This document shows, piece by piece, positions 4,211 to 26,206 of a stretch of 64,000 nucleotides of DNA. Source of the stretch: Candidatus Omnitrophota bacterium (lineage in GTDB: Bacteria; Omnitrophota; Gorgyraeia; Gygaellales; Profunditerraquicolaceae); NCBI GenBank assembly GCA_041662125.1, contig JBAZTA010000001.1:195118-259117 (forward strand), in the 5' to 3' direction. Each line of letters starts with the position of its first letter. The first letter of the stretch is position 1. The notes beneath the pieces are model-generated. The model did no database searches. It was not told where the DNA came from and was given only the letters and a program-made list of their open reading frames with translations. Position numbers and translations under genes: made by a program.

Positions 4211-4226
4211 TACTCTACCTTCATCT

Positions 4227-10423: not shown

Positions 10424-11209
10424 ATGAATCCTATCTTAGAAGTTAACGCAATAACCAAGAATTTCTTTTCTCCCCCTTCCTTCAAACAACTCTTCAGAGG
10501 CAACAAAAAAAAAGAAACTCCGGTACGAGCGCTGGAAAACATTTCATTTTCTCTTAAACCTGGAGAAATCATCTCCCTGCTTGGACCCAATGGGGCGGGA
10601 AAAACGACACTTCTTAAGATTATCGTAAAGCTTCTACTTCCAGACCAAGGCTCAATTATTGTAAACGGTTATACCAGTGAGGTTAACGATGAGAAAATAA
10701 AATCCACCTTGGGTATAGCAACTTCTGCTGAACGCAGCTTTTACGCCAGGTTAAGCGGAAGGCAAAACCTGGAATTCTTTGCCGCGCTGTATGGACTAAA
10801 CAAAAAACAAACTAAAAACAAGATCCAGGAACTGGGCGGATTCTTCAATGCGCATTACCTCGATAAACGCTTTGATACATATTCCGCAGGCATGCAACAA
10901 ACCTTAGGGCTCATACGAGGGCTTATGCATGAACCAAAATTACTCCTGCTTGATGAGCCCACAAAATCACTCGATTACATAAGCACGCAACACCTGCATG
11001 GGTTTATCAGAGATTTATCAAAACAATACGGCACGGCCATTATCATGACAACACATCGTATGGATGAAGCGGCACATTTCGCGGGGCTCATCATGATACT
11101 TGATAAAGGCAGGCTTCGCGCGTTCGGGAGCCGGGATGAGATCAGAAAACAAATAGCTCAACCTCATGCCACCTTAGAGGAAATATTTACCCGGCTGACG
11201 ACCCTATGA
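10424..11209 (+). CDS. ABC transporter ATP-binding protein (Wzt-like, ABC-2 exporter)
   Basis: 261 aa. Walker A GPNGAGKTT, signature YSAGMQQ, Walker B LLLLDEPT. Confidence 0.8.
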   Translation: MNPILEVNAITKNFFSPPSFKQLFRGNKKKETPVRALENISFSLKPGEIISLLGPNGAGKTTLLKIIVKLLLPDQGSIIVNGYTSEVNDEKIKSTLGIATSAERSFYARLSGRQNLEFFAALYGLNKKQTKNKIQELGGFFNAHYLDKRFDTYSAGMQQTLGLIRGLMHEPKLLLLDEPTKSLDYISTQHLHGFIRDLSKQYGTAIIMTTHRMDEAAHFAGLIMILDKGRLRAFGSRDEIRKQIAQPHATLEEIFTRLTTL

Positions 11210-12012
11210 CCAATAAAATCATCGCCTTTTTAAAAAAAGACTTTCTCATCGAATCAAGTTACAAGTTATCATTTATTTTTAACGCGTTAAGCGTTCTGGC
11301 CAGTACCCTGGCTTATTTCTTTATCGATAAATTATTCGGGCATCTGATCGTCGGGCATTTGCAGGAATTTGGCGTGACCTATTTCTCGTATGTGCTTTTA
11401 GGCATGGCTACTTTTAGCTATGTCGGAGTCGGCATAGGATCATTTTCAGCGCGGCTGCACTCTGAACAGGTCCAGGGGACATTGGAAGCAATCCTTTCGA
11501 CCCCAACGTCGATCCCTACCCTCTTATATTCACTGGCTAACTAGAACCTCTGCCTGGCGACATTCGATATGCTGATCTATATTATTTTAGGGGTCTATTT
11601 GTTTCATATAGACCTTTCCCATATTAATATCCTCTCAACCGGGATAATCTTTATACTTACCATCGCCACTTTCAGCAGCCTCGGCATTATTTCTGCGAGT
11701 TTCATCATGGTCTTTAAACGGGGCAATCCTATCAGTTGGCTGGCCAGCAACCTTGAAGGGCTTATTGGAGGGGTTTATTTCCCGATAACGGTTTTGCCGG
11801 CATGGGGGCAATTCCTGGCAAAACTTTTTCCCATTACCTATGCGATCAGGGCGCTGCAATTGTCAGTCTATCAGGGCTACAGTCCCCAACAGTTAAAAAA
11901 AGAGATCCTCGCCCTCTTCCTCTTTACCCTTATCCTGCTCCCCTTGAGCCTTTCCTTATTCAAACACAGCATTAAAATAGCGAAGAAAAACGGCAGCCTC
12001 GCAAAATATTAA
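11206..12012 (+). pseudogene. ABC-2 type transporter permease (Wzm-like) interrupted by an in-frame TAG at 11542-11544
   Basis: ORFs 11206-11544 and 11569-12012 are in the same frame (…LYSLAN*NLCLATFDMLIYII…) and together give a canonical ~265-aa six-TM ABC-2 permease. Start overlaps the ATPase stop (ATGA). Confidence 0.6.
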
Positions 12013-12051: not shown

Positions 12052-12285
12052 AATGAACCTATCGATTTTTCTCGCTCAACACGATTTTTCACCTCAAAGC
12101 ATAACGGACGCCAATGATCTTTGGCATTTCGGTGGCTGCTGAACTCGTGTTTTTTGCTCTAGCAAAAAACCCTCGAACAGCATCGCCATCCCAGATTGTC
12201 AGCCTTTCGGCTGACCTGGGATTCCCTCAATGCCAAAGCTCCATTGGCTAAAATCGTGATTCGCTCGAAAAACCGATAGGTTCAT
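12052..12285. repeat. Long composite hairpin / MITE-like inverted-repeat element
   Basis: ~35-bp imperfect terminal inverted repeats: aatgaacctatcgatttttctcgctcaacacgattt / aaatcgtgattcgctcgaaaaaccgataggttcatt. Nested inner inverted repeats (gccaatgatctttggcatt / aatgccaaagctccattggc). Internal perfect hairpins (GTTTTTTGCT..AGCAAAAAAC; GTCAGCCtttcGGCTGAC). Confidence 0.5.
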
Positions 12286-12328
12286 TTTTATCCCTCTACC
12301 TCATAAAAGTTTATTCTACCCTGACTAC

Positions 12329-12492
12329 TAACGGGTGGCTTGGACTGTTTTCGAGCGGGGCATAAAGGCAAGGAGCGGGCACGGTGTCCGAGTGAAACGA
12401 GGACGAGCGACGCAGCCGACCTGAGTGCAGCCACGCCACGCCGGGGCGTGGCAAACGTCCCCGCGAGAAACAGTCCAAGACAGGACCCGTTA
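12329..12492. ncRNA. Candidate structured ncRNA, family not identified; GC-rich rod-like element
   Basis: Nested complementary helices: taacgggt/acccgtta (12329-36 / 12485-92), cttggactgttt/aaacagtccaag (12339-50 / 12468-79), gcgggg/ccccgc, gccacgcc/ggcgtggc. About 62% GC in a genome of about 41% GC. Sits in a convergent intergenic region. Confidence 0.3.
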
Positions 12493-12600
12493 CCTGGCAT
12501 AATATCATTAAGAGAAAAAAACCGACAGATTCATTCTAAAATAGCAGGCTATAATAGATTTAGTGGTTTGTTAAGGTTAGGATATTAGACAGGAACAATT

Positions 12601-12876
12601 TTAAACGGGAATTACCAGGCCTTTGCTCACTAGCTCTTCAATAAACTCCACAGCATCCTTTTGCAGGCTGCTTTCTTCGACTTCAAATTCATCATGAATA
12701 ATCACGAGGATCTCCCGGCAGGTTTTAGTGCCGTCAATAAGTTCCCAAATTCTCGTACCTGCCGCATTCAAAGGATAGATCAATCCGTCTTTCGGATCAA
12801 CCAACAATGCCTCTTCTTCAATCGTCCTCCAGGCAATACTCTGGTTACGCTTTATTTTCTTATCCAATAATTCCAT
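12601..12876 (-). CDS. PqqD-family RiPP recognition element (RRE) protein, stand-alone
   Basis: Matches K. pneumoniae PqqD from memory: W..(hydrophobic)..P..G....LN..(A/G)..I.EL.DG..........EF.........V.EF…L…KG motifs line up (IAWRT…YPLNAAGTRIWELIDGTKT…DAVEFIEELVSKGLV). Start assigned to the internal ATG at 12876, which has a GGAGG RBS; the ORF-track start at 12933 would overlap the kinase gene by 74 nt. Confidence 0.75.
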   Translation of the reverse strand: MELLDKKIKRNQSIAWRTIEEEALLVDPKDGLIYPLNAAGTRIWELIDGTKTCREILVIIHDEFEVEESSLQKDAVEFIEELVSKGLVIPV

Positions 12877-13669
12877 CAATATACCTCCAGATAGCTTCAT
12901 CCTGTTTAAAATAAAGTTGGTAACAGGGCACATTGTGCGTCAGATCCGCCAAAGAGACTAATAAAGTATTAACAATAGCCCTATCAGGAATATTGACCAA
13001 AATATTATGCAGTAATTCCTTAACGGCATCAGCCTGTTTAAGGCGGCGATGCGTAAACAATCTATCTTTAGAAATCAAGAAGATCGCTTTAAGCGGCGCT
13101 CCCTTGTTTTCATCAGGTAAACCAAAATCACCAAAGAAAGGCGTCGCATACGCATAGAATTTGCCTTTACGCTTAAGGATCGCCGCTGTTTCATCTGTCA
13201 AAACAATACTGCCTTGAGACAGCCGCGCAATAGTAGTTTTACCGCTCTCTGAGGGCCCAAAGAACACATACGAAAAACCACGGTGTAAAACTACACTTGC
13301 GTGCAGCAGGAATCCGCTTTTTTTCAATAAAACAACAAAACACAAAAACCGCAGCACATCAACAATCCCGACATCGGGCACTGCTGAAACACTCACCTTT
13401 TTCTTGCAAAAATCAACCTTCAGGTCAAAGGTCGCTGTTTTAAATTTCGATAAACTCTTTTGAAAGCAGTTGCAAGAACTATACCGCAGATCCTTAGGTC
13501 CTTTTCTTTTGTTTAATTGCAATGATACCAGATAATCCGGCCTATCCTGAGTGACAAAAAGGCAATAATTTTTCTTCAACCAAGTGATCTGCCGCAACTC
13601 TGCGCATCCAACTTCAAAAACAATGTCTACAAGTTTAATTTTTATCCGGTGGGCCATAATTCTTATCAA
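12860..13669 (-). CDS. HprK-related kinase (HPr kinase/phosphorylase C-terminal-domain-like), RiPP-tailoring-kinase type
   Basis: 269 aa. LHASVVLHRGFSYVFFGPSESGKTTIA is the HprK P-loop (G.SG.GKS/T) context. Start overlaps the upstream peptidase stop (ATGA). Confidence 0.7.
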   Translation of the reverse strand: MIRIMAHRIKIKLVDIVFEVGCAELRQITWLKKNYCLFVTQDRPDYLVSLQLNKRKGPKDLRYSSCNCFQKSLSKFKTATFDLKVDFCKKKVSVSAVPDVGIVDVLRFLCFVVLLKKSGFLLHASVVLHRGFSYVFFGPSESGKTTIARLSQGSIVLTDETAAILKRKGKFYAYATPFFGDFGLPDENKGAPLKAIFLISKDRLFTHRRLKQADAVKELLHNILVNIPDRAIVNTLLVSLADLTHNVPCYQLYFKQDEAIWRYIDGIIG

Positions 13670-14112
13670 AATTTTTTAAGCAGATATCTAAGCCGCGCTA
13701 TGCAGGGAAGAAAAAACGCTAAACACAACCCAAAGATCCGGGCATTCCAGGTATCAAGACAAACCACGCCTTTGTCTTTCTTAACCAAAGTTACCTTGCC
13801 AAGCAATTCTTTTGAGCCGATAAAAGTTTCAAGTGAAAAACCGGTATCAGCTTTCGCCATGACAAGCAATTCGCCGTTTCTACGCGCTTTCTTGATGACT
13901 CTATGGCTTATGAGACTATTCTGCCTCTTAAAAACAACTATATCACCATAATGCAGCTGGCTGAGCAAACAAGGAGAAATCGAGACAAGATCATTTTCTT
14001 TTAAAACCGGCACCATACTCTTACCGGTAACCCGCGCCCAACTTCCTTGATTCTTTTGCAACGCTTCGCTAAACAAAGTAAGTGAGCACAAAGAAAAATC
14101 ATGCTCAGTCAT
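13666..14112 (-). CDS. S24/S26-family (LexA/signal-peptidase-like) serine peptidase; candidate leader peptidase
   Basis: 148 aa. TGKSMVPVLKENDLV…YGDIVVFKR matches the G-x-S-M-x-P…GD…K Ser/Lys-dyad motif. ATG overlaps the TAA of the upstream peptide ORF (TAATG). Confidence 0.5.
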   Translation of the reverse strand: MTEHDFSLCSLTLFSEALQKNQGSWARVTGKSMVPVLKENDLVSISPCLLSQLHYGDIVVFKRQNSLISHRVIKKARRNGELLVMAKADTGFSLETFIGSKELLGKVTLVKKDKGVVCLDTWNARIFGLCLAFFLPCIARLRYLLKKF

Positions 14113-14270
14113 TATGAAGAATTAGTAGTACGCTGGCCCTTGCCTGTGCCAGTACGGCTGGTTTGAGAACACGTTACTGCAGTTGCCCTGCAACAAAGCG
14201 CAGCCCCTACTTCCATCATTTTAACTGCCTTTAACTGCGGTTTCTCATATGGTTTCTTTTTTTTGTTCAT
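14112..14270 (-). CDS. Candidate RiPP precursor peptide (52 aa), not in ORF track
   Basis: Minus strand AGGGAGGTGCC-ATG…TAA translates to MNKKKKPYEKPQLKAVKMMEVGAALCCRATAVTCSQTSRTGTGKGQRTTNSS. Basic leader with a Y-x-x-P-x-L motif; Cys/Ser/Thr-rich C-terminal half ending in Ser-Ser. 10 nt after the rSAM stop; stop overlaps the peptidase start. Confidence 0.5.
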   Translation of the reverse strand: MNKKKKPYEKPQLKAVKMMEVGAALCCRATAVTCSQTSRTGTGKGQRTTNSS

Positions 14271-14280
14271 GGCACCTCCC

Positions 14281-15354
14281 TTAACTTATCCTGTCATTAT
14301 ACAACTCATAATCAACTTTTGAAATACAACGCAGGGTATCATAACAAGCTTTTACATCTTTTTTCTCTAAATATGCTAACCCTAAGCACTTCTTGCAAAA
14401 ACGGATATACCGGCAATCCAGGCAATCCGGCATATCAGCGTAGGTGCGCAAATTATCCAATTCTTTGCGTAATGCTGACGGCGATTGCCAGATCTCTCGA
14501 AAACTCATCTTTCTGATATTTCCCATGGGGATCAACAGTTGAATACAGGGATACACATCCCCGTACGGAGAAATATAACAACCGATCACTCCTGTTCCGC
14601 ATAAGAGTTTTTCAAGCGGCTTATCCCAATAACCATGCTTCTTTTCAGAAAGAGGGATATTCGCGCGGGCAATCATTGAACGGATCTGGCCCTCATTGAT
14701 CTGATATTGTTTAGGCTCAGGCGAACCGTCATTTTTACAGGAAAGCTCCATGGTAAAACGATACGCCTGCGCTCCTATCTGATAACAGAATTCTTCAATT
14801 TCTTTTTCTTGATGCACATTACCATTCATTATAGCTGATTTCAATACTACCTTCAAATGATTATCTTTCAAGGATTTCACCGCTCTGCAGAGCTCTTCAA
14901 ACGATCCCGGCCGCCGCGTAATAGCATCATGCACTGCTGCAGTTGAACCATAAACGCTCATTTCAACACATAAAGGAGAAAGCTCTGCAATACGCCTGGC
15001 GCAGGTATCATCGATCAAGGTAGCGTTGGTGAAAATATTCAGCGCGAAATTCTTTTTTCTGGCATAGCGGGCAATCTTAAAAAAATCCCGGCGCAAGAAA
15101 ACTTCCCCTCCGGAAAGGGTAAGATATAATGATCCGACCTCAGATAACTGGTCTAAGAGAGAGAATATTTCACCGGTAGATAATTCTTTTTGGTTAGAAG
15201 GAAAGCTTTCTGACAAACCTTGACAATAACAGTGGATACAATCCTGATTACACCGATAGGTCAGGTCAAGATGGGCCCAAAGAGGTATTTTTCGCTCTTC
15301 TACCTTAGCTAAGATGGTATTAAATTGATATTCTGCCTTGTGGCACGATTGCAT
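14281..15354 (-). CDS. Radical SAM / SPASM-domain peptide-modifying enzyme
   Basis: 357 aa. CNQDCIHCY is the CxxxCxxC radical SAM motif. C-terminal SPASM-type Cys cluster: CGTGVIGCYISPYGDVYPC…CLDCRYIRFCKKC. Confidence 0.8.
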   Translation of the reverse strand: MQSCHKAEYQFNTILAKVEERKIPLWAHLDLTYRCNQDCIHCYCQGLSESFPSNQKELSTGEIFSLLDQLSEVGSLYLTLSGGEVFLRRDFFKIARYARKKNFALNIFTNATLIDDTCARRIAELSPLCVEMSVYGSTAAVHDAITRRPGSFEELCRAVKSLKDNHLKVVLKSAIMNGNVHQEKEIEEFCYQIGAQAYRFTMELSCKNDGSPEPKQYQINEGQIRSMIARANIPLSEKKHGYWDKPLEKLLCGTGVIGCYISPYGDVYPCIQLLIPMGNIRKMSFREIWQSPSALRKELDNLRTYADMPDCLDCRYIRFCKKCLGLAYLEKKDVKACYDTLRCISKVDYELYNDRIS

Positions 15355-15372
15355 CGTATCGAAAAAAACAGC

Positions 15373-18300
15373 TTACTTCTTAATGACCATAGCCGGGTCG
15401 CCAAAAAGATTATAGGTTTCTAAGATCGCCCTGATATTAGGATTATTCTTTTCGTACACATATTTCTTTGCCAACTGTATTGCTTCACCAAAACTCATAT
15501 TCATATTATTGTTATCAAATACCGCCTGATAGAAACCTTTCGCGAAGAATTCCTGCTCTTCAGGAGAACTCACGATACTGGGAAATACCCCGCCTGCCGC
15601 TCCTTTATCAGGAGTTAAAAGCAATACTTCACCCACTGAATCAAGAATCCTTTGCGGATATATAAAATAACCGTTAGCGCAGGTCAAAGTAATAAAGAAT
15701 GGATATTTTCCCGTATTGGTAAGGCGCCCCACATCCGCATTGGTAAATACACGGCTGGTCGACCATAAACTTATTCCTCCGTGTCCCGTATACGTGACAA
15801 AAGAAACTCCCCGGTTAATTTCCTCAAGGATCCCCTGATGCACGGCCGATGCGCTATCATTATCGAGGTATAACTTGACCTTTTGATCAGGAGCAGGGAA
15901 TTCCAGCGCCAGCCTATCAGAAAGCGACGAATAGGCTTTATGTTCATCTCCATCAGCTACGAGAAGATGGTTTCCGGTAGAATACCCTGCTGTTTCATAA
16001 TTAATGATCTTCTGTATGACTGCCTGCAGTTGCACTGTGTCGTTAACCGGGAGTCGGCCGATCATCATTTTTGGCAGAGCTGAATCTTCAAATGTAGCAA
16101 ACCAGCCATCTGAAGGCCCTTCTCCAAAACGGCCTGCATATACCAGGTATGCCGGCACCAGATTTTTAGCGCCTAATTGATACTGATCTTTATAATCAAA
16201 CGTACCGTCCCCGACAAACAACACATATTTTGGCTTCGGCAGCTGCCAATTCAGATAGGCATACTTCAAGAAATCTTTAATAGCAACCGGCGAGAAAACC
16301 CCGTAATTAAACGCATCATATATCTCATCGACCGTTACAACTTTGACCGAGTACCCTTGAGATGCCCTATACTCTACTAAAGGTTTAATACCCTCGAGGA
16401 AATCGCTATGCGTAATGACAATATAATCCGCCTGGTTAGTTTTCTTTATGATATCAGAAGGCCCAGATTGCGTGATCTCAACCGGCGAGCGCACCCCTTT
16501 ATCGGATACCGCCACGTACATCCGCTTATTCTTGTCACGATTATTAAATCGCGCGCTGTATGTTAACCCGTTATTTTCAACGCTGACATTGGCAAGCCGC
16601 ACCGGCCGGTTTTCTCTCGTAATATCAAACACATTAATTTTATCTGAGCTAAACCCAGTAATATAATACGTCGAGGCTTGAGCTTTTCCTTCAAACACAA
16701 GCGCATCATTTTGAGCAACGAAATTACGCGGGTATTGCAGCTTAACCCAATCCAAAAGCACTAATTGAGGAAGCAGGCCACCGTCGTCAGGAACTTCGAT
16801 CCTGAGGATATTCGAGCCTTCGGATAAAACAGTCGCATCAAATTCCCCCTGACAGACATAATACGTATCTCCATTCCACTGCCCAGCAGCAACGGCAACT
16901 CCATTAATATACACTTTTATTTTTTGCAGGTTGTTGCCCGCCATTAATATACTTGAGAACCCCTGCAGCCCTATTTGAATACGCGCGCTGCCTCCGGAAA
17001 CATTTAATTGGTCAACAGAAAGCTCTAATTCATAGTCCATAGGAGAAAATAATTCATCCGCCCAAAACCAGTGCTCTTCGCCGTTAATTTCAGGATAATA
17101 ACTGCTGTTATCTTCCAGCTTTACCTCGCTCATATAATAACCTTGCACAGTTCCGGCAGAAGACGCAAGCCTATTTTCTATTCTTTCTCCATTTTTATTT
17201 ATCATAAGCCAATAAATATTGCGTTTGGCATAACGGGTATCAATTGCCTTGGCGTAAAACTCGATATAATCATCCCCGGCAATGACCGACACCACTTTAC
17301 CCTGATTAAGCAGTTTGATATTCGCAGGGTCAAACAGGCTTGCATCAAAGCCTGCCGTTTGCAGATCAAGTTTAGTGAGCCGGTACATCCCATCCTGCTC
17401 AACTGCCAGTTTGAACACATCTTTCTGATTTTGCACCCTTTGCAGGCGAACCGCGGGAACATTCAGGGCATCCTTAAGGGTATTACGCTCTTTAAGTTTC
17501 TTGCCGTTACGCAATAGTATACTCTCTTCTTTATCCAGCCAGGAATTATCTCCGACTCCGACACTTACCGGGCCGACATACGTTTCTCCTGTAGGCCGGT
17601 TAAGAACTCCCAAGATATAATAATAATTCACATTGGGTTCGGTATCAATCACTTCGTAATTCTTGCCGCTGATCGGGCCGCCGCAGGAAGGAATGAATTT
17701 ACCTACCGGCACATAACTTTCTTTGTTATCCGGGGTCAAGCTGCGGTATACCTGGAAGCCTTTAACGGCAATTTCTGATTCGCTGGTAAAACGCACAGAA
17801 ATATTATTATCTCTGTTGTAATTCGCCGCTAATGAAACGATCTTTGCCGCGGTAGGTTCGCTAATAGCGATATAACGCAGGCTCATAAGAGCAAAGTCCC
17901 AATCCCTGGTTGCTGCGGCAGTCGCGGTAGATGTAGAAGTACCCAGCCTTAAATTTCCCAGGTTATTCGTCGTATCGATATAATCAGGCAGATTATTCTG
18001 ATACGTAGTAGTATAAAACGTTAACGTTGTAGTCGCGTTAGTCGAACCGGAACTGATCCAGCCTCCGGTCGTATTATTAATTCCGGTATAATCTAGCAAA
18101 CCTAATGTCACGGTATTGGTTGCCAGATTGCTCCTAAACCTGTTCGCAAGCCTGATACCGGTGATTTTTGAACCATATGGGATCGTTAAAGGGAATGAAA
18201 GATTACTTGATGAGCAATAGTTCGTTGCCCATGTCCCTGCCCGGTCTAAAGCATAAAACGTTGCAGCGCTCGTCGTAACCGTAGTATGCTGCCAGGTGGA

Positions 18301-20931
18301 ATCAGCGGAGCTGGTATCCATAGTCATGGTATTAGCTGCGGTAGTGCCTCCAGCCTCAGTTCCGAAGCTCGTTTCCGATAAAGAAACATTATTATTAACT
18401 GAACCTACAATGATATACATTAAATCAAGGGAATGATTATAACTTAACGCGGGAGCATTCGTCAGAATACCGACGCGCATTTCCCCTTCAGAAGACATAT
18501 AATCCGATAACGTAACATTTGACTTGGCGAAATAATAGGTTGCTTCCGTGGTATTTGAAAGGGTAGTAGCGTTCAAATTCTCCCAAAGTGTCGTGTTAAA
18601 ATTATAAATCTGCACATTATAGGTCAATGCCACATTAGAAACCAATCCTTCATATGCGACCATGACCGTATTAGCCCCGGTATAAGCGGCAACATTCATA
18701 AATGACAAATAATACTGTAATGCCGCCCCTGCAACATTAGGAACAGTAATACGGTTATTATCAGTCGTAAAGGTATAATCATAGGTATTGGTTTCTGTGC
18801 CTCCGGCAACTTTCGTATATCCGGCTGGTTCATAATAAGGATCAATAGCTACTTCTAATACCATTCTATCCATATAATGGATATACGAATTTGTTGTATA
18901 GCTGGAATATATCCGCAGCATCACCCTGTTATTATTTGCGGTATCTACAAAGTTTGACAGAGGCGTGGATACAGGACTGTTGCCTGACTGCCAATATCCG
19001 TCATAGATCTCCCAAACCCGGTCAGCATCAGCGGTATTGGTTAATGTCGTATTTCGCTCATTTAACGGCCTCCAGGTAGCATTCAACACATCATAGATCT
19101 GCACCTGATAGGTCAAAGCGGCATTAGATACATAGCCGCCTTCATAAATAATTAATTTATTAGCTGCCTTTAAATCAACTCCTTCAATATAGATCCGTTT
19201 ATCTAACCCATCACTTCCTCCCGTAACACTACTGGTTGCCCAATATACCGTATCATTAGCTAATGTCCCTTTCCATCCTGCAGAGGTAGCAGAAAGCGCT
19301 GCTTCTGTGCCCATGGCAAGACTAAATCCTGTTGGGCTATAACCGGCTTGTATCGAAGGACGGGTCGGAACTTCAACCCAGCGGATACTCATCATAGCAA
19401 AATCCCAGTCCCGGGTCACGGTCGCGGTCGCGGTAGAAGCGGAAGTTCGCAGCCTCAAATTACCCAGATCATTCGTACTATCGATAAAATCAGGACAGTT
19501 ATTCTGATAGGTCGTAGTATAAAATGTTATGGTTGTCGTAAGATTCGTTGAGCCTGAATCAACCCAGCCTCCTGTCGCGGCATTAATCCCTGAATAATCT
19601 TTTAAACTTAAGGCAACGGTATTTGCGGTTGAGTTACTTCTGAACCTGTTCACCATCCTGATACCGGTGACCGCGCAGCCATCCGGCACGGTGATCGGAA
19701 ATGAAAGATTTGACGAAGCAGAATAATTAGTCCCCCAGGTTCCTGCCCTATCGGAAGTATAAAACGTAGCAGCGCTCGTCGCAACCGTATCATGCTGCCA
19801 GGTAGAATTAGCGGAGCTACTGTCCATATCCCTGGTATTAGCAACAGAGGAGCCCACGGTTTCTGTGCCAAAAGATGTTTCAGACAAGCCCGCGTCGGTA
19901 TTGACGGAACCGACAATAATATACAATGAATCAATATTATGGTTACGGGTTGCCGCAGGGGCATTGGTCAAGAAACCTATTCGAGCCTCTCCATCCTGTA
20001 TATAATCAGCCAGATCGACATTTGACTTCGCGAAATAATAGGTGGTTTCCGTAGTATTAGAAAGCGTGGTGCCGGAAAGATTTTCCCAGTTTGAAGTAGT
20101 AAAATTATATATTTGTACATCATAGGTTAAAGCAACGTTAGAAACAGCGCCTTCATACGTCACCTCTATAGCGTTAGCACCGGGATAAGTCTTTACATTG
20201 TTAAAAGAGAAATAATATTGCGACGTAGCTGCTACATTACTAGCGACCGTTAAACGCGTATTATCCGAAGTAAAGGTATAATCATAGGTATTAGTAACTG
20301 CGCCGCCTGAAACTTTAGTAAAACCCGCCGCCTCATAATACGGGTCAACGGCTACTTCTAACAACATACGCTCTACATAGTGAGTACGGGCAACCGAAAC
20401 ATATGTCGAATAAATACGCAAGGTTACCCGCTGATTGGCATCCTGGGTCACAAAATTGGATAAGGGAGTTGAAATGGGGATGTTGCCTGCCTGCCAATAT
20501 CCATCATATATTTCATAGGTATAATTGGTATCAGCGGTATTGGCTAAGGTAACATTGCGTTCATTAAGCGTCCGCCAAGTGGCATTAACCACATCATAGA
20601 TCTCCACCAGATACACTAATGCCGCGTTAGAACTATACCCGCTATAACTAATAATGAATTTATTAGCGCCTTTTATATCCACACCGTCAATATAAATTTC
20701 CTTATCTAAGCCAACGCCTCCGGCTATAAGGTTGCCCGTCGCCCAATAAACGTTCTCATTTGCCAAAGCCCCTTTCCATCCCGAAGAGGTGGCAGAAAGC
20801 GCTACTTCTGTACCAACAACCAAATTATAACCGGTAGGAGTATAGCCGGAGTTAGCCCATACCTTATAAAAAACACACAATACTGAAAAACAGATGAAGA
20901 ATAATAAAAAAACAAGATTTATTTTTCTCAT
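15373..20931 (-). CDS. Giant secreted protein: signal peptide, two ~500-aa tandem repeat domains, pro-region, C-terminal peptidase C25 (gingipain-like) catalytic domain
   Basis: 1852 aa. N-terminal signal peptide MRKINLVFLLFFICFSVLCVFYKVWA. C-terminal YTGHGGISLWSTS…PFFITLTCANGYF matches the gingipain His/Cys dyad context (Kgp NYAGHGSETAWGTS…FIFDVACVNGDF). AAGGAG RBS. Confidence 0.8.
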   Translation of the reverse strand: MRKINLVFLLFFICFSVLCVFYKVWANSGYTPTGYNLVVGTEVALSATSSGWKGALANENVYWATGNLIAGGVGLDKEIYIDGVDIKGANKFIISYSGYSSNAALVYLVEIYDVVNATWRTLNERNVTLANTADTNYTYEIYDGYWQAGNIPISTPLSNFVTQDANQRVTLRIYSTYVSVARTHYVERMLLEVAVDPYYEAAGFTKVSGGAVTNTYDYTFTSDNTRLTVASNVAATSQYYFSFNNVKTYPGANAIEVTYEGAVSNVALTYDVQIYNFTTSNWENLSGTTLSNTTETTYYFAKSNVDLADYIQDGEARIGFLTNAPAATRNHNIDSLYIIVGSVNTDAGLSETSFGTETVGSSVANTRDMDSSSANSTWQHDTVATSAATFYTSDRAGTWGTNYSASSNLSFPITVPDGCAVTGIRMVNRFRSNSTANTVALSLKDYSGINAATGGWVDSGSTNLTTTITFYTTTYQNNCPDFIDSTNDLGNLRLRTSASTATATVTRDWDFAMMSIRWVEVPTRPSIQAGYSPTGFSLAMGTEAALSATSAGWKGTLANDTVYWATSSVTGGSDGLDKRIYIEGVDLKAANKLIIYEGGYVSNAALTYQVQIYDVLNATWRPLNERNTTLTNTADADRVWEIYDGYWQSGNSPVSTPLSNFVDTANNNRVMLRIYSSYTTNSYIHYMDRMVLEVAIDPYYEPAGYTKVAGGTETNTYDYTFTTDNNRITVPNVAGAALQYYLSFMNVAAYTGANTVMVAYEGLVSNVALTYNVQIYNFNTTLWENLNATTLSNTTEATYYFAKSNVTLSDYMSSEGEMRVGILTNAPALSYNHSLDLMYIIVGSVNNNVSLSETSFGTEAGGTTAANTMTMDTSSADSTWQHTTVTTSAATFYALDRAGTWATNYCSSSNLSFPLTIPYGSKITGIRLANRFRSNLATNTVTLGLLDYTGINNTTGGWISSGSTNATTTLTFYTTTYQNNLPDYIDTTNNLGNLRLGTSTSTATAAATRDWDFALMSLRYIAISEPTAAKIVSLAANYNRDNNISVRFTSESEIAVKGFQVYRSLTPDNKESYVPVGKFIPSCGGPISGKNYEVIDTEPNVNYYYILGVLNRPTGETYVGPVSVGVGDNSWLDKEESILLRNGKKLKERNTLKDALNVPAVRLQRVQNQKDVFKLAVEQDGMYRLTKLDLQTAGFDASLFDPANIKLLNQGKVVSVIAGDDYIEFYAKAIDTRYAKRNIYWLMINKNGERIENRLASSAGTVQGYYMSEVKLEDNSSYYPEINGEEHWFWADELFSPMDYELELSVDQLNVSGGSARIQIGLQGFSSILMAGNNLQKIKVYINGVAVAAGQWNGDTYYVCQGEFDATVLSEGSNILRIEVPDDGGLLPQLVLLDWVKLQYPRNFVAQNDALVFEGKAQASTYYITGFSSDKINVFDITRENRPVRLANVSVENNGLTYSARFNNRDKNKRMYVAVSDKGVRSPVEITQSGPSDIIKKTNQADYIVITHSDFLEGIKPLVEYRASQGYSVKVVTVDEIYDAFNYGVFSPVAIKDFLKYAYLNWQLPKPKYVLFVGDGTFDYKDQYQLGAKNLVPAYLVYAGRFGEGPSDGWFATFEDSALPKMMIGRLPVNDTVQLQAVIQKIINYETAGYSTGNHLLVADGDEHKAYSSLSDRLALEFPAPDQKVKLYLDNDSASAVHQGILEEINRGVSFVTYTGHGGISLWSTSRVFTNADVGRLTNTGKYPFFITLTCANGYFIYPQRILDSVGEVLLLTPDKGAAGGVFPSIVSSPEEQEFFAKGFYQAVFDNNNMNMSFGEAIQLAKKYVYEKNNPNIRAILETYNLFGDPAMVIKK
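17854..20850 (-). repeat. Tandem duplication, 2 x ~1.5 kb, encoding two ~500-aa paralogous domains inside the giant C25 gene
   Basis: Protein residues 28-528 and 529-1026 align end to end at about 65-70% identity (SGYTPTGYNLVVGTEVALSATSSGWKG… / AGYSPTGFSLAMGTEAALSATSAGWKG…). DNA blocks are visibly similar about 1.5 kb apart. Confidence 0.7.
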
Positions 20932-20979
20932 AATCCCGAACTCCTTATTTTGTTACTGTTAAGACATCCCGAAAATAAA

Positions 20980-21010
20980 AAAACCCATTGCCTAATCATC
21001 AATGGGTTTT
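20980..21010 (-). terminator. Intrinsic terminator-like hairpin plus U-tract, between the NTase gene and the giant C25 gene
   Basis: Minus strand: AAAACCCATTGatgattaggCAATGGGTTTT stem-loop (11-bp stem), then TTTTTTTATTTTCGGG. Lies only about 30 nt upstream of the AAGGAG RBS of the next gene. Confidence 0.5.
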
Positions 21011-21169
21011 ACCTAAAAACTCACCATCATTTTCGGCAGCTGACTGTCTTGGCCTTTTGGCTTTAGACTCTTTAAGCTTTGCGCCCTGAGCTTTCGCTAA
21101 GTTTGCCCTTTTCGTATCTCTTTTCCTATCCAAATGTAAGTATATCATATGATTACAACAAAAACAAGT

Positions 21170-22231
21170 TTAAAAAGACTTAGCGGCTTTCCAGCGCACA
21201 CCCGCAGAAATAGCCTTTATTTTGTTAAAAAATCCTTTCTGTATCGCTAAGTATAAAAGAACACATGCGTCTTCACGGGGAAAATCGTTATTTTTCGCAT
21301 AAGTAAAGAAATATTTCTCTAAAAGAGACATTCCCTGCGGCCGTAATGTCGAAAGAAAATCCTCAGGCACAGGAGTAGAAAACAATTCTTTGATCAACGA
21401 AACTCCCATATATATAGGTAAAACAAGCCCCCATTGACGGCCCAAAGCAGCAATTTCCTGCCAATCAAGTGAATCTCGATACGCCAACACAAATGCATGT
21501 AAATCATAAAGGATATTGAGCCGTGCAAATCCATGGCGCATCCCATGTTCACACAACGCGGTAAACATCTGTTCTGGTGGCATCATAAACAAATTATCTT
21601 TATTTTTATCTATTCGAACTCCTGCATCCCAGATTTCTTCAACATCGACTCCTGAGGCTTGCTTGCGTAATAAAGGCATCGAAACATTAGATAAACCCCA
21701 ATGCAGATGCAGCGGCATAAAGACCGATTGGTCCTTATCGTGTTTTAAGAACATTGCCGCGGTCGATTCGCCTGATGGTGCATTTTTTTCCCGCGTATCA
21801 AAATTTCTATATCCCAGCGATCCAATAAGATGGCGTGCTTTCTCCACATTGGCCGCTTTTACAAGAAAATCAACATCTTCCATGCGCCTTACCCCAATGC
21901 GAGCCTGATAAACTACATGTAAAAAAAACATCCCCTTAAGCACTATGATCTCTATCCCAGCGGCCGCAAAGGCCGTGCGCAACTTTTCAAATTCCTCTAA
22001 CAAGAGGGTATTACGAAAAAGATTCATTCTATACTTCTCTTGGAGCTGTTGGTAAACCTCATCAGGAATACTTAAATCTTTTTGCCGGTCTCTGACAATA
22101 TGAAATAAAAGGGCTGATACTTTCGAACGAGCAGCAATACTCACTAACCGCCCCCAATCGCATTTCTTCCCGTTATAAGGAAGAAATTTTCCATTCAATA
22201 ACGAAACTAAATATGTTTTTACCGGTGTCAT
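21170..22231 (-). CDS. Nucleotidyltransferase-family protein, PF14907/NTP_transf_5-like
   Basis: 353 aa. IIVLKGMFFLHVVY…RRMEDVDFLVKAANVEKARHLIGSLGY resembles the LKG…D(I/V)D(L/F)LV core of the uncharacterised nucleotidyltransferase family that co-occurs with HprK-like kinases in lasso/RiPP clusters. Confidence 0.45.
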   Translation of the reverse strand: MTPVKTYLVSLLNGKFLPYNGKKCDWGRLVSIAARSKVSALLFHIVRDRQKDLSIPDEVYQQLQEKYRMNLFRNTLLLEEFEKLRTAFAAAGIEIIVLKGMFFLHVVYQARIGVRRMEDVDFLVKAANVEKARHLIGSLGYRNFDTREKNAPSGESTAAMFLKHDKDQSVFMPLHLHWGLSNVSMPLLRKQASGVDVEEIWDAGVRIDKNKDNLFMMPPEQMFTALCEHGMRHGFARLNILYDLHAFVLAYRDSLDWQEIAALGRQWGLVLPIYMGVSLIKELFSTPVPEDFLSTLRPQGMSLLEKYFFTYAKNNDFPREDACVLLYLAIQKGFFNKIKAISAGVRWKAAKSF

Positions 22232-22249: not shown

Positions 22250-23149
22250 TTAGAACTTTTGTATTTCCTGATTGACATACGAGCCTCGTGAAAGAGGTTC
22301 AAGTATCTGGCTGAGGAAGTAATTAAGGTTGGCAATGAATTTCTTCGGGACAAAGATTATATCTTCCGACACAAGAGAGATATTCTGATTAGCATCCCCT
22401 TTAAGCACCTTATTGAGCGTGATACGTTTGACTTCAGGCTTTTCCAAACCGCCCCGTATAATAACAATACTGGAAGCGACAGCATCCTTGGTCAGCCCGC
22501 CGGCTAAGGTAATAGCTTCAACGATCGTTTTAGCGCCGGTAAGGGAATAGACACCTGGCCGGTAAATTTCGCCCAGCAGCAGCACTTTTTGCCCTCCTAT
22601 TTTCTTAATAGAGATAGAGACTTCCGGATGCTTTACGTATTCCTTTAATCGCTCTGTAAGCAAGGCATCAAGTTCAGTAATAGTAAGTCCTACCACATCA
22701 ACATCTCCAATTAAGGGAAAAGAAATCTTTCCATCCGGCCGTACCACAACTTCCTGGTCAAGGTCCTGATTTTGCCAAACTAAAATATGCAAAACATCAT
22801 CTTCGCCAATGGTATATTCCTGAAGCGGCTTTTTCTTTGCATTCAAATTCTTTGCTACCGGCGGCTGAAGCGGTTGTTCCAGGCTCATCGGCTCTCCGGC
22901 CGCAGTTTGCGCTGCCTGCTTATCCTGAAACGTTATCGCCGGTGTTTCTTCCTTCTGATTCAAAAGGCCTAATGCATTGTTAAACTCAGCTTGAGCTTCC
23001 TGGAACTTTCCCTGCTGGTAATACAAATTACCTTTGAGATAATGTTCACGTGCCTGCTCCTGGGCATGGTCATCCTGCCCGTATATGCACGGAACCACCA
23101 TCCCGGACATTAAGAGAACAAACACTATTTTTTTAACGCGATCAAGCAT
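22250..23149 (-). CDS. Polysaccharide export protein (Wza/GumB/KpsD family; Poly_export + SLBB)
   Basis: 299 aa. Signal peptide, then YTIGEDDVLHILVWQNQDL…VRPDGKISFPLIGDVDVVGLTITEL (Poly_export), then an SLBB-like C-terminal part. Confidence 0.75.
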   Translation of the reverse strand: MLDRVKKIVFVLLMSGMVVPCIYGQDDHAQEQAREHYLKGNLYYQQGKFQEAQAEFNNALGLLNQKEETPAITFQDKQAAQTAAGEPMSLEQPLQPPVAKNLNAKKKPLQEYTIGEDDVLHILVWQNQDLDQEVVVRPDGKISFPLIGDVDVVGLTITELDALLTERLKEYVKHPEVSISIKKIGGQKVLLLGEIYRPGVYSLTGAKTIVEAITLAGGLTKDAVASSIVIIRGGLEKPEVKRITLNKVLKGDANQNISLVSEDIIFVPKKFIANLNYFLSQILEPLSRGSYVNQEIQKF

Positions 23150-23154
23150 AGATA

Positions 23155-25110
23155 TTAGTTTTTGTTATTTGCAGGCTCTAAGATCACTTCGATCTTTCTT
23201 TTTAATTCTTCAGCGTCCTGCTTATCTTTAGAAAATATATCTGGAGACTCATTGCCGTAAGAGTTGGTGTTTATCTTATTCTGCAGAAGGGCATTGATAC
23301 GCACTGCGGAGGCCAAGTCATCAATGGTTTTTTTCTGAAGGTCTCTGGTTGCCGCTAATTCTTCCTGCAATTTTTCTGAACGCACGCGTAAACCAGCGAT
23401 CTCCTGGCGCAAGGAACCAAGTTCCCTGTTTTTTTGTTTCAACTCCGCCTCTTTATCATTCAAAAGCTGAGTTAACTGCGTAATCTGCGACCTCAGGCTG
23501 TTATATAATAAATTTACTTCATCAACATGCGATTGCTGTTTGGCTAACTCTTCCTGTGTTGAAGCTTTCGAGGCCTGGATCGCGGCAAGATTATTCTCCA
23601 GGGAGCGCTTCTCCTCTTCTTTACGTAATATCTGCTGGCTTAAATAATCGAGATTCTTTTGCAAAGAGGTACTTATTTCCTCTTTCTTTACCAGCGCCGA
23701 TTGGGCATCGTTTAACTGCGCCTGTAACGAAAGCTTCTGCGTTTCCAAATCCCGCACTTTCTCTTTATTATCCAAAGATGCCTTTTGGTTATTCTCCAAT
23801 TCCCCTACCTTATTCTGCAGTGAAAGCATTTTGTCTTTTGATAAGGATAATTCTGTTTTCACTTTATCTAATTCCAATTCCTTACGGATCATGATATCCG
23901 CCAGTTGCCTTACCTGCCCTGAAGTATTCTCAATTTCCGCGGATACTGCCGGATTACCGCTTTTATTCACCCGCAAACGTTCAAGCGATGCCGATAAGCG
24001 TTCTTTTTCAGCATTGAGTTTTGCGATAAGAGTATCTTGGCTGCTGATCTCATCCTGAGCCTGGCGCAGGGAGTCTTCTGACACACTTCTGCCTGATTCC
24101 CAATCCCTGACTCGCCGGACAGACTGCTTACTGCCGCTCAACTCCTCATCAACCGTCCCCAGGCGTGCTTTTAAGTCCGCGACATCATTCTTCAGGCGCG
24201 CGCTTTCCGTCTTTTGCGCGTCCAATTCCTGCCGTTTCTTTGATAATTCATCAGAGAGCATGGCAAGCTGGCTTTTGAGGTTACGATTAGCCGTCTCCAA
24301 TGAAGTAATCGAATCCTGATACTGCCGCGCCTGTTTTTCCTGAGTGAATTTGGCGGAATTTAATTGTGTAAACTCTGCCTGAAGAGAACTGATCTGGCTT
24401 CTCTTTTGAGCAAGTTCAGCATTAAGCTGCGAGATATTCTCTTCTAATGATTTTAACGGCCCACTCTGACGGGAAACCGTCTGCTGAAATTCAGAGATCT
24501 TAGACAGCAGAGATGACTTTTCAGTTTCCAGGTCTTTCACCTTTTTTTCAAGCAGTTTATTAATTTGGCGCTCGCCTTGCAGCTCTTTTAATTCTTTTTT
24601 AGCCTGGGCTAATTCCTCATCTTTGCCTTGGCTGCTCAAGGATAATTTCTCTATTTTCTCCCTTAAGGGGAGGATCTGGTTCTTATCCGCATGCAATAAT
24701 TGGCTTTTAATATTCTTAAGCTCTTCGGTCACACGGATAAATTCCTTGGTAGTATTCTGTAAACGATTAACCATACTGGAATTACTTTCCTGCAGCGTGA
24801 TCCGTTCTTTATTGACCGTGGCCAATTCCCGGCTTAACTGGTCTATAGTGGCTTGCGCATTGGTCACTGATTGCCGTATAGCCTCTACATGAGCAAGCCC
24901 TTTTAATGTTTTATCTTTTTCTTGAAGGGACATTTGCAGTTCCGCAGCCCTATTTTCTATCTCCTGGGTATAGCCCTGTAATTCTTCCTTTTCCTGATTT
25001 AATTGGGTATTTAAATCCTGGGCACGCGTCAGTTTTTCATAAACCATAAACGCTGCGTAACCAACAATAGCAATCACTACAATTATCCCTAGTAAACGAA
25101 TACGTTTCAT
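23155..25110 (-). CDS. Membrane-anchored long coiled-coil protein
   Basis: 651 aa. N-terminal TM (LLGIIVVIAIVGYAAFMV) followed by >550 aa of Q/E/K/L-rich heptad-like sequence. Confidence 0.45.
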   Translation of the reverse strand: MKRIRLLGIIVVIAIVGYAAFMVYEKLTRAQDLNTQLNQEKEELQGYTQEIENRAAELQMSLQEKDKTLKGLAHVEAIRQSVTNAQATIDQLSRELATVNKERITLQESNSSMVNRLQNTTKEFIRVTEELKNIKSQLLHADKNQILPLREKIEKLSLSSQGKDEELAQAKKELKELQGERQINKLLEKKVKDLETEKSSLLSKISEFQQTVSRQSGPLKSLEENISQLNAELAQKRSQISSLQAEFTQLNSAKFTQEKQARQYQDSITSLETANRNLKSQLAMLSDELSKKRQELDAQKTESARLKNDVADLKARLGTVDEELSGSKQSVRRVRDWESGRSVSEDSLRQAQDEISSQDTLIAKLNAEKERLSASLERLRVNKSGNPAVSAEIENTSGQVRQLADIMIRKELELDKVKTELSLSKDKMLSLQNKVGELENNQKASLDNKEKVRDLETQKLSLQAQLNDAQSALVKKEEISTSLQKNLDYLSQQILRKEEEKRSLENNLAAIQASKASTQEELAKQQSHVDEVNLLYNSLRSQITQLTQLLNDKEAELKQKNRELGSLRQEIAGLRVRSEKLQEELAATRDLQKKTIDDLASAVRINALLQNKINTNSYGNESPDIFSKDKQDAEELKRKIEVILEPANNKN

Positions 25111-25114
25111 ATTT

Positions 25115-26206
25115 TTAAACTTGATTATTTAAACATTCATCGACATAAATCATGGAATTATCCGCCAGATTAACCTGTTTAGGCTCTTTTAATTCTTTCC
25201 CATACGCGTCAATAATGATATTAACTACCGGACGCAGCGGTAAATCAAGATTTTCCCTGACCACTAAACCGATCTCTTTAGTATTAAGCCTGACCAGTGT
25301 CCCGAGAGGAAATACCCCTATGCGTTCGATCAATAATTTAATGATCTTATGGTCAAAAAATGACTTATTCTTTAAAATTGTTTTAATCGTCTCCAAAGGG
25401 CTGAATTTAAGGCGGTACGGGCGCTTATGGTTCATCGCCTCATAAACATCGACTAACCCGACAATGCGCGCATATTCACAGATCTGATCCTCCTTAAGGC
25501 CGGCAGGATACCCGGCACCATCCATACGCTCATGTTCCTGGCGCACGACATCAAAAACCCGCTGTCCGAATTCCCGGCCAAACTTTTGTACTATTTCAAG
25601 CCCTGCCAAAGGATGCTCTTTAATACGCTTGGTTTCTTCAAGCCTCAAAACATCTGGTTTATTGATAATATCGAAACACTTCACCATTCCTATGTCATGT
25701 GTCAGCGCAGCAACGCCTAATTCCATTAATCCAGCCTGGTCAAAGCGTAAACCTATCCCCAGCTCAAGAGAAATAACGCAGACATTAACGGTATGATAAT
25801 AAAAGTAATCCGTGGCTTGAGGATAATCAATTAAGCAACACCGCAATAAATTCTTATTGCCCCCTTGCAGCAACCCAATAGTTTTTTCAACCAACGGGGA
25901 AAGCGAAGCAAGGAATCCTTCCTCATATTTTAAATCAGGATTATACAATACGCGGGATGCCGATACGAGATGGTCATACAATTCAGAGGCTTTTGTGGCG
26001 TTAATACTATTTAACTCTTTATGAACAGCTGCTGAAATGCTGACTTGCTGTGCTTGCGGGACTTGGTTTTGATCTGCCGATCCTCCTGTACCCTGCGGGG
26101 GAACCCTGTACGCGCTTCCTAAAACACCCGAATTTATCTCAAAATCAGTATCAAGGTTTTTCTTTTGCTCCCTGTGTTTCTTGAAAATATCGGATATTCT
26201 AAGCAT
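25115..26206 (-). CDS. HD-GYP domain protein (putative c-di-GMP phosphodiesterase)
   Basis: 363 aa. HDIG motif (ALTHDIGM) and HERMDGAGYPAGL (HD-GYP signature). Confidence 0.7.
   Translation of the reverse strand: MLRISDIFKKHREQKKNLDTDFEINSGVLGSAYRVPPQGTGGSADQNQVPQAQQVSISAAVHKELNSINATKASELYDHLVSASRVLYNPDLKYEEGFLASLSPLVEKTIGLLQGGNKNLLRCCLIDYPQATDYFYYHTVNVCVISLELGIGLRFDQAGLMELGVAALTHDIGMVKCFDIINKPDVLRLEETKRIKEHPLAGLEIVQKFGREFGQRVFDVVRQEHERMDGAGYPAGLKEDQICEYARIVGLVDVYEAMNHKRPYRLKFSPLETIKTILKNKSFFDHKIIKLLIERIGVFPLGTLVRLNTKEIGLVVRENLDLPLRPVVNIIIDAYGKELKEPKQVNLADNSMIYVDECLNNQV

Follow-up and report, generated by a model that had tools for sequence, protein, structure and literature searches.

Does a giant secreted protease gene that lies between a nucleotidyltransferase gene and a peptide-modification cassette belong to that cassette, or is it an insertion? 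The question arises at positions 12601–22231 of a 64,000-nt stretch of DNA from a Candidatus Omnitrophota metagenome-assembled genome, the whole of which we call the window. There, a C25 peptidase gene separates a nucleotidyltransferase (NTase) gene from the genes for a ribosomally made, post-translationally modified peptide (RiPP) and its maturation enzymes. A preliminary description of the sequence offered insertion and functional partnership as two options. We find that each holds in part: the protease gene is inserted relative to a related locus that lacks it, yet it recurs as a partner of such cassettes across phyla. We also found a cyclic di-GMP (c-di-GMP) riboswitch ahead of the protease gene, which is the key regulatory element absent from the earlier reading. 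With modest confidence, we lean towards the view that the segment forms one conserved small-ribosomal-peptide system inside an exopolysaccharide (EPS)-export locus, arranged in two regulatory units and operating by the mechanism proposed below.

Gene calls and Pfam/NCBIfam domain searches over the window bore out the gene order first described, which runs from the NTase through the protease to the radical S-adenosylmethionine (rSAM) enzyme, precursor, peptidase, kinase and PqqD on the minus strand. In the direction of transcription, the elements are as follows.

21170–22231, minus strand: NTase of the NTP_transf_5 family (PF14907; Pfam E 2.5e-46)
21138–21166, minus strand: promoter-like hexamers TTGTTT-17 nt-TATACT, read from the sequence
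21032–21117, minus strand: c-di-GMP-I riboswitch aptamer (RF01051; 73.4 bits)
20972–21010, minus strand: hairpin and T-run, the likely expression platform, read from the sequence
15373–20931, minus strand: C25 peptidase gene, 1852 aa (Peptidase_C25 E 1.1e-87, aa 1503–1849)
14281–15354, minus strand: rSAM/SPASM peptide maturase (Radical_SAM E 4e-21, SPASM E 6.5e-12)
14112–14270, minus strand: precursor peptide candidate, 52 aa, with an upstream GGGAGG ribosome-binding site and homologues in relatives
13666–14112, minus strand: S24/S26 (signal-peptidase-I-like) peptidase (Peptidase_S24 E 2.8e-07)
12860–13657/13669, minus strand: ScmC-family (PF27840) P-loop protein, the 'kinase' (Pfam entry of a 100%-identical protein)
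12601–12876/12933, minus strand: PqqD-family RiPP recognition element or peptide chaperone (PqqD E 5.9e-16)

The spacing of 18 nt between the C25 stop codon and the rSAM ATG, also part of that description, was confirmed. Successive gaps from C25 through rSAM, precursor, peptidase and ScmC to PqqD measure 18, 10, −1, about 8 and −17 nt, and the PqqD ATG at 12876 is preceded by a GGAGG motif. The NTase gene begins 18 nt past the stop codon of a Wza-like exporter gene and is the last gene of that upstream unit. The protease and the five cassette genes are thus packed behind the riboswitch, and the NTase stays with the Wza unit.

To place this arrangement in context, we compared 52 loci (denoted by L numbers), collected through homologues of the P-loop protein and of the C25 core and by scanning species-representative genomes and metagenome data; all were searched with the window proteins. 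Precursor, rSAM/SPASM enzyme, PqqD, ScmC-family protein and S24/S26 peptidase, together with a convergent ABC-2 transporter, form a large multi-phylum family. One member, L023, has the order AAA_22-HD-GYP-Wza-NTase-rSAM-precursor-S24-ScmC-PqqD, followed by ABC-2 and Wzc-Wzy-Wzx. It has no C25 gene, and only 3 nt separate its NTase and rSAM genes. Relative to this arrangement, which is otherwise collinear with the window, riboswitch and C25 constitute an insertion in the lineage of the window and its relative L021, in both of which they arrived together between NTase and rSAM.

Yet C25 abuts the cassette in 11–12 loci, in at least five gene orders and usually with gaps of less than 100 nt. The phyla concerned are Omnitrophota, Chloroflexota (L005, L013), Acidobacteriota (L006, L014, L015) and Thermodesulfobacteriota (L051). 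Among Omnitrophota-type loci, the gene lies directly upstream of rSAM in the window, L021 and L048, and upstream of a HEAT protein and S24 in L022; elsewhere it directly follows rSAM or the precursors (L005, L006, L014, L015), PqqD (L013) or ScmC (L052). In L051 the order is peptide-C25-S24-PqqD, followed by ABC-2 and NTase, and both rSAM and ScmC are missing. In total, C25 accompanies ten cassettes plus L051, with L009 probably another. A blind look-up of five C25 relatives gave three that were cassette-linked, one (L050) that was not and one at a contig end, that is, three of the four informative cases. C25 and NTase occur together in the window, L021, L022 and L051; an iterated profile search found no NTase in the five non-Omnitrophota C25-type loci from the ScmC scan, and L052 has none.

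The preliminary description had proposed comparing the composition of the C25 gene with that of its flanks. Its GC content (0.436), GC content at third codon positions (0.423) and codon usage are the same as those of neighbouring and housekeeping genes, and with no anomaly found, a recent foreign insertion is rejected. Between the window and L021, the C25 proteins are 65% identical, and the ScmC, rSAM and NTase proteins 52–59%. Given its place beside the cassette in loci of at least four phyla and several gene orders, and the lack of a compositional anomaly, our conclusion is that C25 is a functional partner of the peptide cassette, facultative yet recurring, and not a hitch-hiker.

Two further observations concern the surroundings of these relatives. 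The Thermodesulfobacteriota variant (L051, 1643–9577) carries an upstream 321-aa protein that belongs to no family. Cassettes of other phyla often have large secreted repeat proteins beside them, of beta-propeller/SBBP, DUF7948, cadherin-like/Big_9 and thrombospondin type 3 kinds (L043, 5085–8309; L013, 6250–7677; L052, 2–1252; L006, 9435–12895).

How is the protease-plus-cassette unit regulated? An Rfam scan of the window returned a single match, a c-di-GMP-I aptamer (E 1.7e-12; 73.4 bits, with the gathering score at 35) that spans the complete RF01051 model (positions 1–87 of 87). It lies in the 238 nt that separate the NTase stop from the start of C25, on the same strand as C25, and ends 101 nt before the C25 ATG. 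Between aptamer and C25 is a hairpin with an 11-bp stem (AAAACCCATTG / CAATGGGTTTT), followed by a T-run. The hairpin is present in minimum-free-energy (MFE) folds, and L021 has an equivalent hairpin and T-run. It had been described as terminator-like; hairpin and T-run are real, but this is not a plain terminator, since the aptamer precedes it, and it is likely to be the expression platform of the riboswitch. The L021 ortholog carries the aptamer in the same position (80 bits), with compensatory changes in its helices. Across three aptamers, four of the six pairs of one hairpin are altered on both sides; two-sided changes affect 5 of the 12 predicted aptamer pairs, a count that comes from three sequences only. 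The promoter-like block upstream is kept in L021 as TTGAAA-17-CATATT. The hexamers score under the threshold of a consensus scan, and those at 21138–21166 may serve as the promoter of the riboswitch unit.

A G at the position of Vc2 G20 marks the c-di-GMP class as opposed to the cyclic GMP-AMP (cGAMP) class (PMC6140456). A G occupies the position that we mapped to it, by our own inference, in the window, L021 and L008, and a cGAMP-type (GEMM-Ib) riboswitch is therefore rejected; by this class assignment the aptamer is predicted to sense c-di-GMP. In MFE folding, the terminator forms with and without an aptamer constraint, and in L021 a long alternative helix uses the P2 strand of the aptamer. 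The models give a weak lean towards an ON switch. No riboswitch turned up in L022, in C25-less loci or at the C25 loci from other phyla. In L008, also from Omnitrophota, a c-di-GMP-I riboswitch (3202–3276; 63 bits) lies about 5 kb upstream of the cassette and precedes small open reading frames (ORFs); one of these has a BamE-like domain, and another encodes an RNase T-like exonuclease. Among the literature searched, we found no paper that connects a RiPP cluster or a C25 peptidase with a c-di-GMP riboswitch.

What might the cassette produce? The window precursor, MNKKKKPYEKPQLKAVKMMEVGAALCCRATAVTCSQTSRTGTGKGQRTTNSS, has a YxxPxL leader (PYEKPQL), a CC...C core and a C-terminal Ser, and its ribosome-binding site lies 5 nt upstream of the start. 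Precursors in most related loci share a K/R-rich start, a YxxPxL-type leader and two or three Cys residues, with a tail variable in sequence and length. Among 29 distinct precursors found without any condition on the C terminus, 28 end in Ser. Those of L007 and L017 were left out of this count because the search pattern itself required a terminal Ser. In L051, which lacks ScmC, the peptide (RYEPPRI...) ends in Pro. No precursor was found between rSAM and C25 in the Acidobacteriota loci L006, L014 and L009. The rSAM ORFs of these three carry a conserved C-terminal extension (…KNAEFR..AYE.WK.KTG…GG.LSKCAM; L006 ~4080–4270, L014 ~3720–3900, L009 ~2800–2965), which might be a fused or alternative substrate.

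The window rSAM enzyme has RCNQDCIHC as its CxxxCxxC motif and reaches the cutoff of none of the curated maturase models in NCBIfam. The S24/S26 peptidase, which reaches 43.5 bits with the archaeal-type signal peptidase I model (cutoff 51.85), is present in most cassettes and is the candidate leader peptidase, so that C25 would not be needed for leader removal. L008 has two rSAM matches and, in the S24 position, a lasso-B2-type Transglut_core3 protease, which ties the cassette to lasso-type machinery.

The P-loop protein had been called a kinase. Structure prediction upholds a kinase-type fold; there is no local Pfam match, and the match to ScmC is only weak. The PF27840 'ScmC' assignment is precomputed for a database protein 100% identical to ours, and a profile search puts the family at 1,349 clusters at 50% identity (E<=1e-30). 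With the NCBIfam ScmC model (TIGR04249) the window protein reaches 24 bits against a cutoff of 125, and 20 of 25 family members match it weakly. The AlphaFold2 model (predicted local distance difference test (pLDDT) score 89) finds PEPCK (E 5e-9) and HprK/P (E 1.5e-5) in Foldseek. A sequence profile also matches PEPCK around the HAS...G.SG.GKTT segment, and family members match curated PEPCK models weakly. H119, K140, D155, E156 and the P-loop are invariant; the acidic pair is D-E, as against D-D in lasso kinases. To the HprK-related models TIGR04352 and TIGR04355, the window protein has no match at E<0.01, and 6 of 25 family members match each weakly (best E 6e-5 and 1.6e-5). Equivalog membership in ScmC and HprK_rel_A/B is accordingly rejected, with all scores under the curated cutoffs.

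A precedent comes from lasso peptides, in which the HprK-family kinases PadeK and PsmK use a His-Lys-Asp-Asp motif to phosphorylate a conserved C-terminal Ser of the linear precursor, and the addition of a hexose to the Ser-phosphate depends on PsmN, an uncharacterised protein of the NTase family (PMC6993621, PMC9266682). We predict from the fold model that the ScmC-family protein is a peptide kinase with a PEPCK/HprK fold. Because of the lasso precedent and the co-variation of ScmC with the terminal Ser, we infer that it would phosphorylate Ser52 and that the PF14907 NTase, where present, would extend the phosphate. Homologues of the NTase, which has no sequence match among solved structures, stand next to rSAM or a precursor gene in 19 distinct ScmC loci; the NTase is an optional accessory of the cassette. 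The statement that kinase, PqqD and NTase genes are normally contiguous proved only loosely right, in that the NTase flanks rSAM or precursor in relatives and is absent from some. The association of an HprK-related kinase/PqqD/NTase trio with exosortase loci that was mentioned there was not confirmed: the protein fails the HprK_rel_A/B models, the window contains no exosortase and no paper on it was found.

ScmC might instead be no Ser kinase at all: it could serve as a scaffold that depends on ATP or have a different substrate, with the Ser kept for exporter or peptidase recognition or for rSAM chemistry. The closer Foldseek match to PEPCK than to HprK/P, the failure of the curated HprK-related models, the D-E pair and the Cys-ending precursor candidate beside the ScmC of L008 all speak for this. 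We consider it unlikely, although it keeps real weight, given the invariant P-loop and H/K/D-E residues, the joint presence of terminal Ser and ScmC in 28 of 29 loci and their joint absence from L051, and the directness of the lasso-peptide precedent; L008, moreover, has the lasso-B2-type protease.

We turn next to the protease itself. Its C25 domain scores 295 bits against a gathering score of 23 (Pfam PF01364), and the catalytic His (YTGHGG) and Cys (LTCANG) are retained in an alignment to gingipain R. The protein starts with a Sec-type signal peptide, read from the sequence, and continues with ~500-aa beta-sandwich modules (aa ~30–530 and ~535–1030), a PorU-like region (aa ~1165–1500) and the catalytic domain (aa 1503–1849). 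The C-terminal ~690 aa are the part common to all cassette-linked C25 copies. Among curated models, PorU and PorU2 match this core best, across about 620 residues and with scores short of the cutoffs; for PorU (NF033707), 275.5 bits against 420 were reached over model positions 106–732 of 1095, and membership of that equivalog is rejected. No type IX secretion genes (PorV, PorZ and others) were found in the window. Several other cassette-linked C25 proteins have a Propeptide_C25 domain; the window protein has no match to it.

The N-terminal modules (17818–20850, aa ~28–1030) are two copies, 67% identical to each other, that belong to no Pfam family. Their homologues are exclusively stand-alone proteins of 600–780 aa (34–67% identical), several of them from Patescibacteria (Magasanikbacteria, Moraniibacteria). 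The predicted structure (pLDDT 77) is all-beta, an array of beta-sandwiches that resembles tandem CBM22 domains, accessory domains of GH101 and a glycan-binding surface protein of Bacteroides. As the TM-scores are only ~0.2, glycan binding by these modules is no more than suggested by the model. Overall, the features of C25 are compatible with processing of the peptide, with PorU-like transpeptidation that joins the peptide, or with a role as the peptide's target in protease regulation.

The last of these roles, in which the modified peptide acts on the protease as inhibitor, in-trans prodomain, maturation factor or anchoring factor, fits the co-transcription with tight spacing, the missing Propeptide_C25 match in the window and the availability of S24 as candidate leader peptidase. 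It is nonetheless distinctly improbable in our judgement: L006, L014 and L048 have C25 but no S24, leaving C25 as the sole peptidase, most cassettes work without C25, and we know of no protease inhibitor that resembles these peptides.

More doubtful still is that C25 has no functional link to the peptide and is an unrelated insertion, a c-di-GMP-regulated secreted protease of an EPS or biofilm programme. Its absence from L023 and most cassettes would fit, as would the promoter-like block and riboswitch that it brings along, the cassette-free relative in L050 and the stand-alone occurrence of its N-terminal modules in Patescibacteria. Set against this are the recurrent adjacency across phyla and gene orders, the outcome of the blind look-ups, the unremarkable composition and the five cassette genes that follow 18 nt behind C25 with no separate promoter signal.

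Least of all do we expect C25 to be a PorU-like sortase that uses the C-terminally phospho-(glyco)sylated peptide as linker or primer to couple a protein or peptide to exopolysaccharide by transpeptidation: the PorU/PorU2 similarity, the Wza/Wzc/Wzy/Wzx surroundings in Omnitrophota, the CBM (carbohydrate-binding module)-like N-terminal modules and the NTase-dependent hexose on Ser-phosphate in lasso peptides are countered by a PorU score below cutoff (275 against 420), by the lack of any type IX secretion context and by Acidobacteriota and Chloroflexota C25-type cassettes with neither EPS genes nor NTase. An extension of this idea, in our eyes a long shot, is that a crosslinked peptide with a sugar- or nucleotide-extended phosphate on its C-terminal Ser serves the Omnitrophota EPS as structural linker or primer, with C25 coupling peptide or proteins to it by transpeptidation and c-di-GMP switching the whole step through the riboswitch. 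If true, this would amount to a ribosomal-peptide-based decoration or anchoring of the polysaccharide matrix, and the peptide would be no diffusible antibiotic or signal.

Our preferred reading, a peptide system with C25 as partner, also draws on the neighbouring genes of the window.

33728–35545 and 28642–30435: two secretins, upstream of the cassette
26199–27041, minus strand: ExeA-like AAA_22 ATPase (Pfam/NCBIfam)
25115–26206, minus strand: HD-GYP phosphodiesterase-type protein (Pfam/NCBIfam)
23155–25110, minus strand: coiled-coil protein, between the Wza-like exporter and HD-GYP genes
22250–23149, minus strand: Wza-like exporter (Poly_export E 6.5e-25)
10424–12012, plus strand: ABC-2 transporter (ATPase 10424–11209, permease 11206–12012; Pfam)
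8289–10223: Wzc, downstream of the cassette
6795–8171: Wzy, downstream of the cassette
5228–6835: Wzx, downstream of the cassette

The ExeA-like ATPase and the two secretins lie upstream, as first described, together with TPR proteins. Wzx, Wzy and Wzc had been put on that side too; they are in fact downstream of the cassette, past the divergent ABC-2 transporter. Beyond them come methyltransferases and glycosyltransferases, and the remainder of the window consists of housekeeping genes. About 13 distinct Omnitrophota-type loci have EPS genes at their flanks (Wza, Wzc, Wzy, AAA_22, HD-GYP); the relatives from Methylomirabilota, Acidobacteriota and Chloroflexota have none there, except that L052 has a Wzc-like gene. 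The EPS-linked role proposed earlier therefore holds as an association for Omnitrophota-type loci but, L052 aside, not for other phyla, and a cell-surface or EPS function is to be read as lineage-specific. The AAA_22 and HD-GYP pair stands beside the cassette in L023–L029, L034, L036 and L046, and the two are fused into one 613-aa protein in L029 (5825–7666), which suggests that they work together. An ABC-2 transporter occupies the same position in L001, L021, L023, L025, L027, L035, L048 and L051.

The ATPase, exporter, chain-length determinant/kinase and Wzy-like protein all have PEP-CTERM-system models as their best curated matches, each below cutoff (ATPase 228 against 324.5, exporter 126 against 180, chain-length determinant 149 against 279), and membership of those equivalogs is rejected. 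No exosortase gene or domain was found in the 64-kb window. The two secretins are paralogous and PilQ/GspD-like, with scores below cutoffs, and each is preceded by a TPR/coiled-coil protein, one of 1025 aa. As there are no pilus or type II secretion genes near them, the secretins appear to be part of the EPS locus.

Several features of the region between PqqD and the transporter are recorded here for completeness. The ABC-2 permease gene has an in-frame TAG at 11542–11544 where the L021 ortholog codes for Trp, which fits a TGG>TAG change; the frame stays intact past it. The gene may truly be a pseudogene, or the stop may stem from an error in sequencing or assembly. The spacer after PqqD holds a 235-bp element (12052–12286) resembling a miniature inverted-repeat transposable element (MITE), with 37-nt terminal inverted repeats that are 84% complementary. 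The end of the element occurs a third time at 12517–12535, 249 nt further on; its terminal 19-mer has no other copy in the window, and the element has no Rfam match. A GC-rich stretch at 12336–12482 is closed by a 15-nt inverted repeat. L023 and L025 have a methyltransferase gene where the window has these spacer elements.

We propose the following mechanism, to which the modest confidence stated at the outset applies. PqqD would bind the YxxPxL leader, and the rSAM enzyme would crosslink the conserved Cys residues. ScmC would phosphorylate the C-terminal Ser, which is nearly invariant, in the way that PadeK and PsmK modify lasso precursors; where a PF14907 NTase is present, it would extend the phosphate, just as PsmN adds a hexose. 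Leader removal would fall to the S24/S26 peptidase, and export of the product to the ABC-2 system. In the EPS layer, the secreted C25 protein, with its His/Cys dyad and CBM-like modules, may then process the exported peptide or its conjugate proteolytically or use it in transpeptidation. c-di-GMP, presumably also handled by the neighbouring HD-GYP protein, would set the timing of C25 and peptide production.

A number of observations weigh against this account. The chemical steps are predicted from sequence and models, and the ON/OFF logic of the switch is not derivable from folding. About two thirds of the cassettes do without C25, and a close relative of the protease (34% identical, in L050) has no cassette nearby. 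Omnitrophota precursors look alike with and without C25, with no C25-specific recognition motif visible. ScmC falls far below the curated ScmC and HprK-related models and has D-E in place of D-D, and the L008 precursor candidate, the single exception to the terminal Ser, ends in Cys although ScmC is present. The CBM-like assignment of the N-terminal modules depends on TM-scores of about 0.2, and a stop codon interrupts the ABC-2 permease in this assembly.

How does the locus compare with known systems? It resembles the EPS loci of the XrtA/PEP-CTERM type in that its ATPase, exporter, chain-length determinant/kinase and Wzy-like protein match models of that system best; it differs in that these matches are below cutoff, in having no exosortase, and in its two secretins and HD-GYP gene. 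Omnitrophota are uncultured, and their surface biology is little understood. Here, a single locus links second-messenger signalling, matrix export and peptide modification. It is a good lead for experiments.

As in known c-di-GMP-I (GEMM-I) riboswitches, such as Vc2 of Vibrio cholerae, a canonical aptamer is followed by an intrinsic-terminator-type platform, here before a secreted protease. Zmp1/PPEP-1 of Clostridioides difficile is likewise a riboswitch-controlled protease. What differs is the downstream unit, which includes a complete RiPP maturation cassette, and the Omnitrophota host; a c-di-GMP riboswitch before a protease-plus-RiPP operon inside an EPS locus is an unreported association. 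The protease resembles PorU and gingipains in being secreted, in its His/Cys dyad and in the PorU/PorU2 similarity over about 620 residues. It departs from them in its catalytic domain at the extreme C terminus with no PorU-type C-terminal region, its 1,100-aa N-terminal extension with two novel beta-sandwich modules, and its occurrence outside Bacteroidota beside a RiPP cassette. A PorU/gingipain-type protease as a recurrent RiPP-cassette partner across phyla is likewise an unreported association.

Among peptide-maturation systems, the SynChlorMet (SCM) cassette has the same kinds of component: an ScmC-family protein, a PqqD relative, one or more rSAM/SPASM maturases and a small peptide. The window proteins nevertheless score under the equivalog cutoffs (ScmC TIGR04249, 24 against 125; ScmD TIGR04248, 37.5 against 100; ScmE and ScmF, TIGR04250/04251, 103.7 and 63.6, each against 400), and the window has one rSAM gene, not two, and adds S24 peptidase, NTase and C25. 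To our knowledge, neither the SCM nor any ScmC-type cassette has been characterized experimentally. Among the literature searched, we found no paper on the present cassette, on PF14907 in this role or on the combination of HprK, RiPP and radical SAM.

The lasso-peptide tailoring module (PadeK, ThcoK, PsmK, PsmN and the PqqD-like B1, from the paeninodin and pseudomycoidin systems) shares with the window a PqqD-type leader binder, a kinase (in the window, a predicted one) of the PEPCK/HprK fold class with conserved His, Lys and acidic pair, a YxxPxL-type leader and a near-invariant C-terminal Ser in the precursors. Each also has an NTase-like protein: for PsmN the published description goes no further than 'uncharacterised NTP transferase', and the window protein belongs to PF14907. 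The relative L008 even has a B2-type transglutaminase-like protease. A lasso-peptide cluster is nevertheless rejected, as the window has no cyclase (Asn-synthetase-like C protein) or B2 protease. It has an rSAM/SPASM enzyme and a Cys-containing core, and its kinase belongs to the distinct family ScmC (PF27840); C25, the c-di-GMP riboswitch and the partnership with an EPS locus are not described for lasso clusters. For ScmC cassettes, the chemical prediction is a radical-SAM-crosslinked peptide with a phosphorylated C-terminal Ser, extended when an NTase is present. If this is true, the kinase/NTase tailoring logic of lasso peptides has been carried to a different RiPP scaffold.

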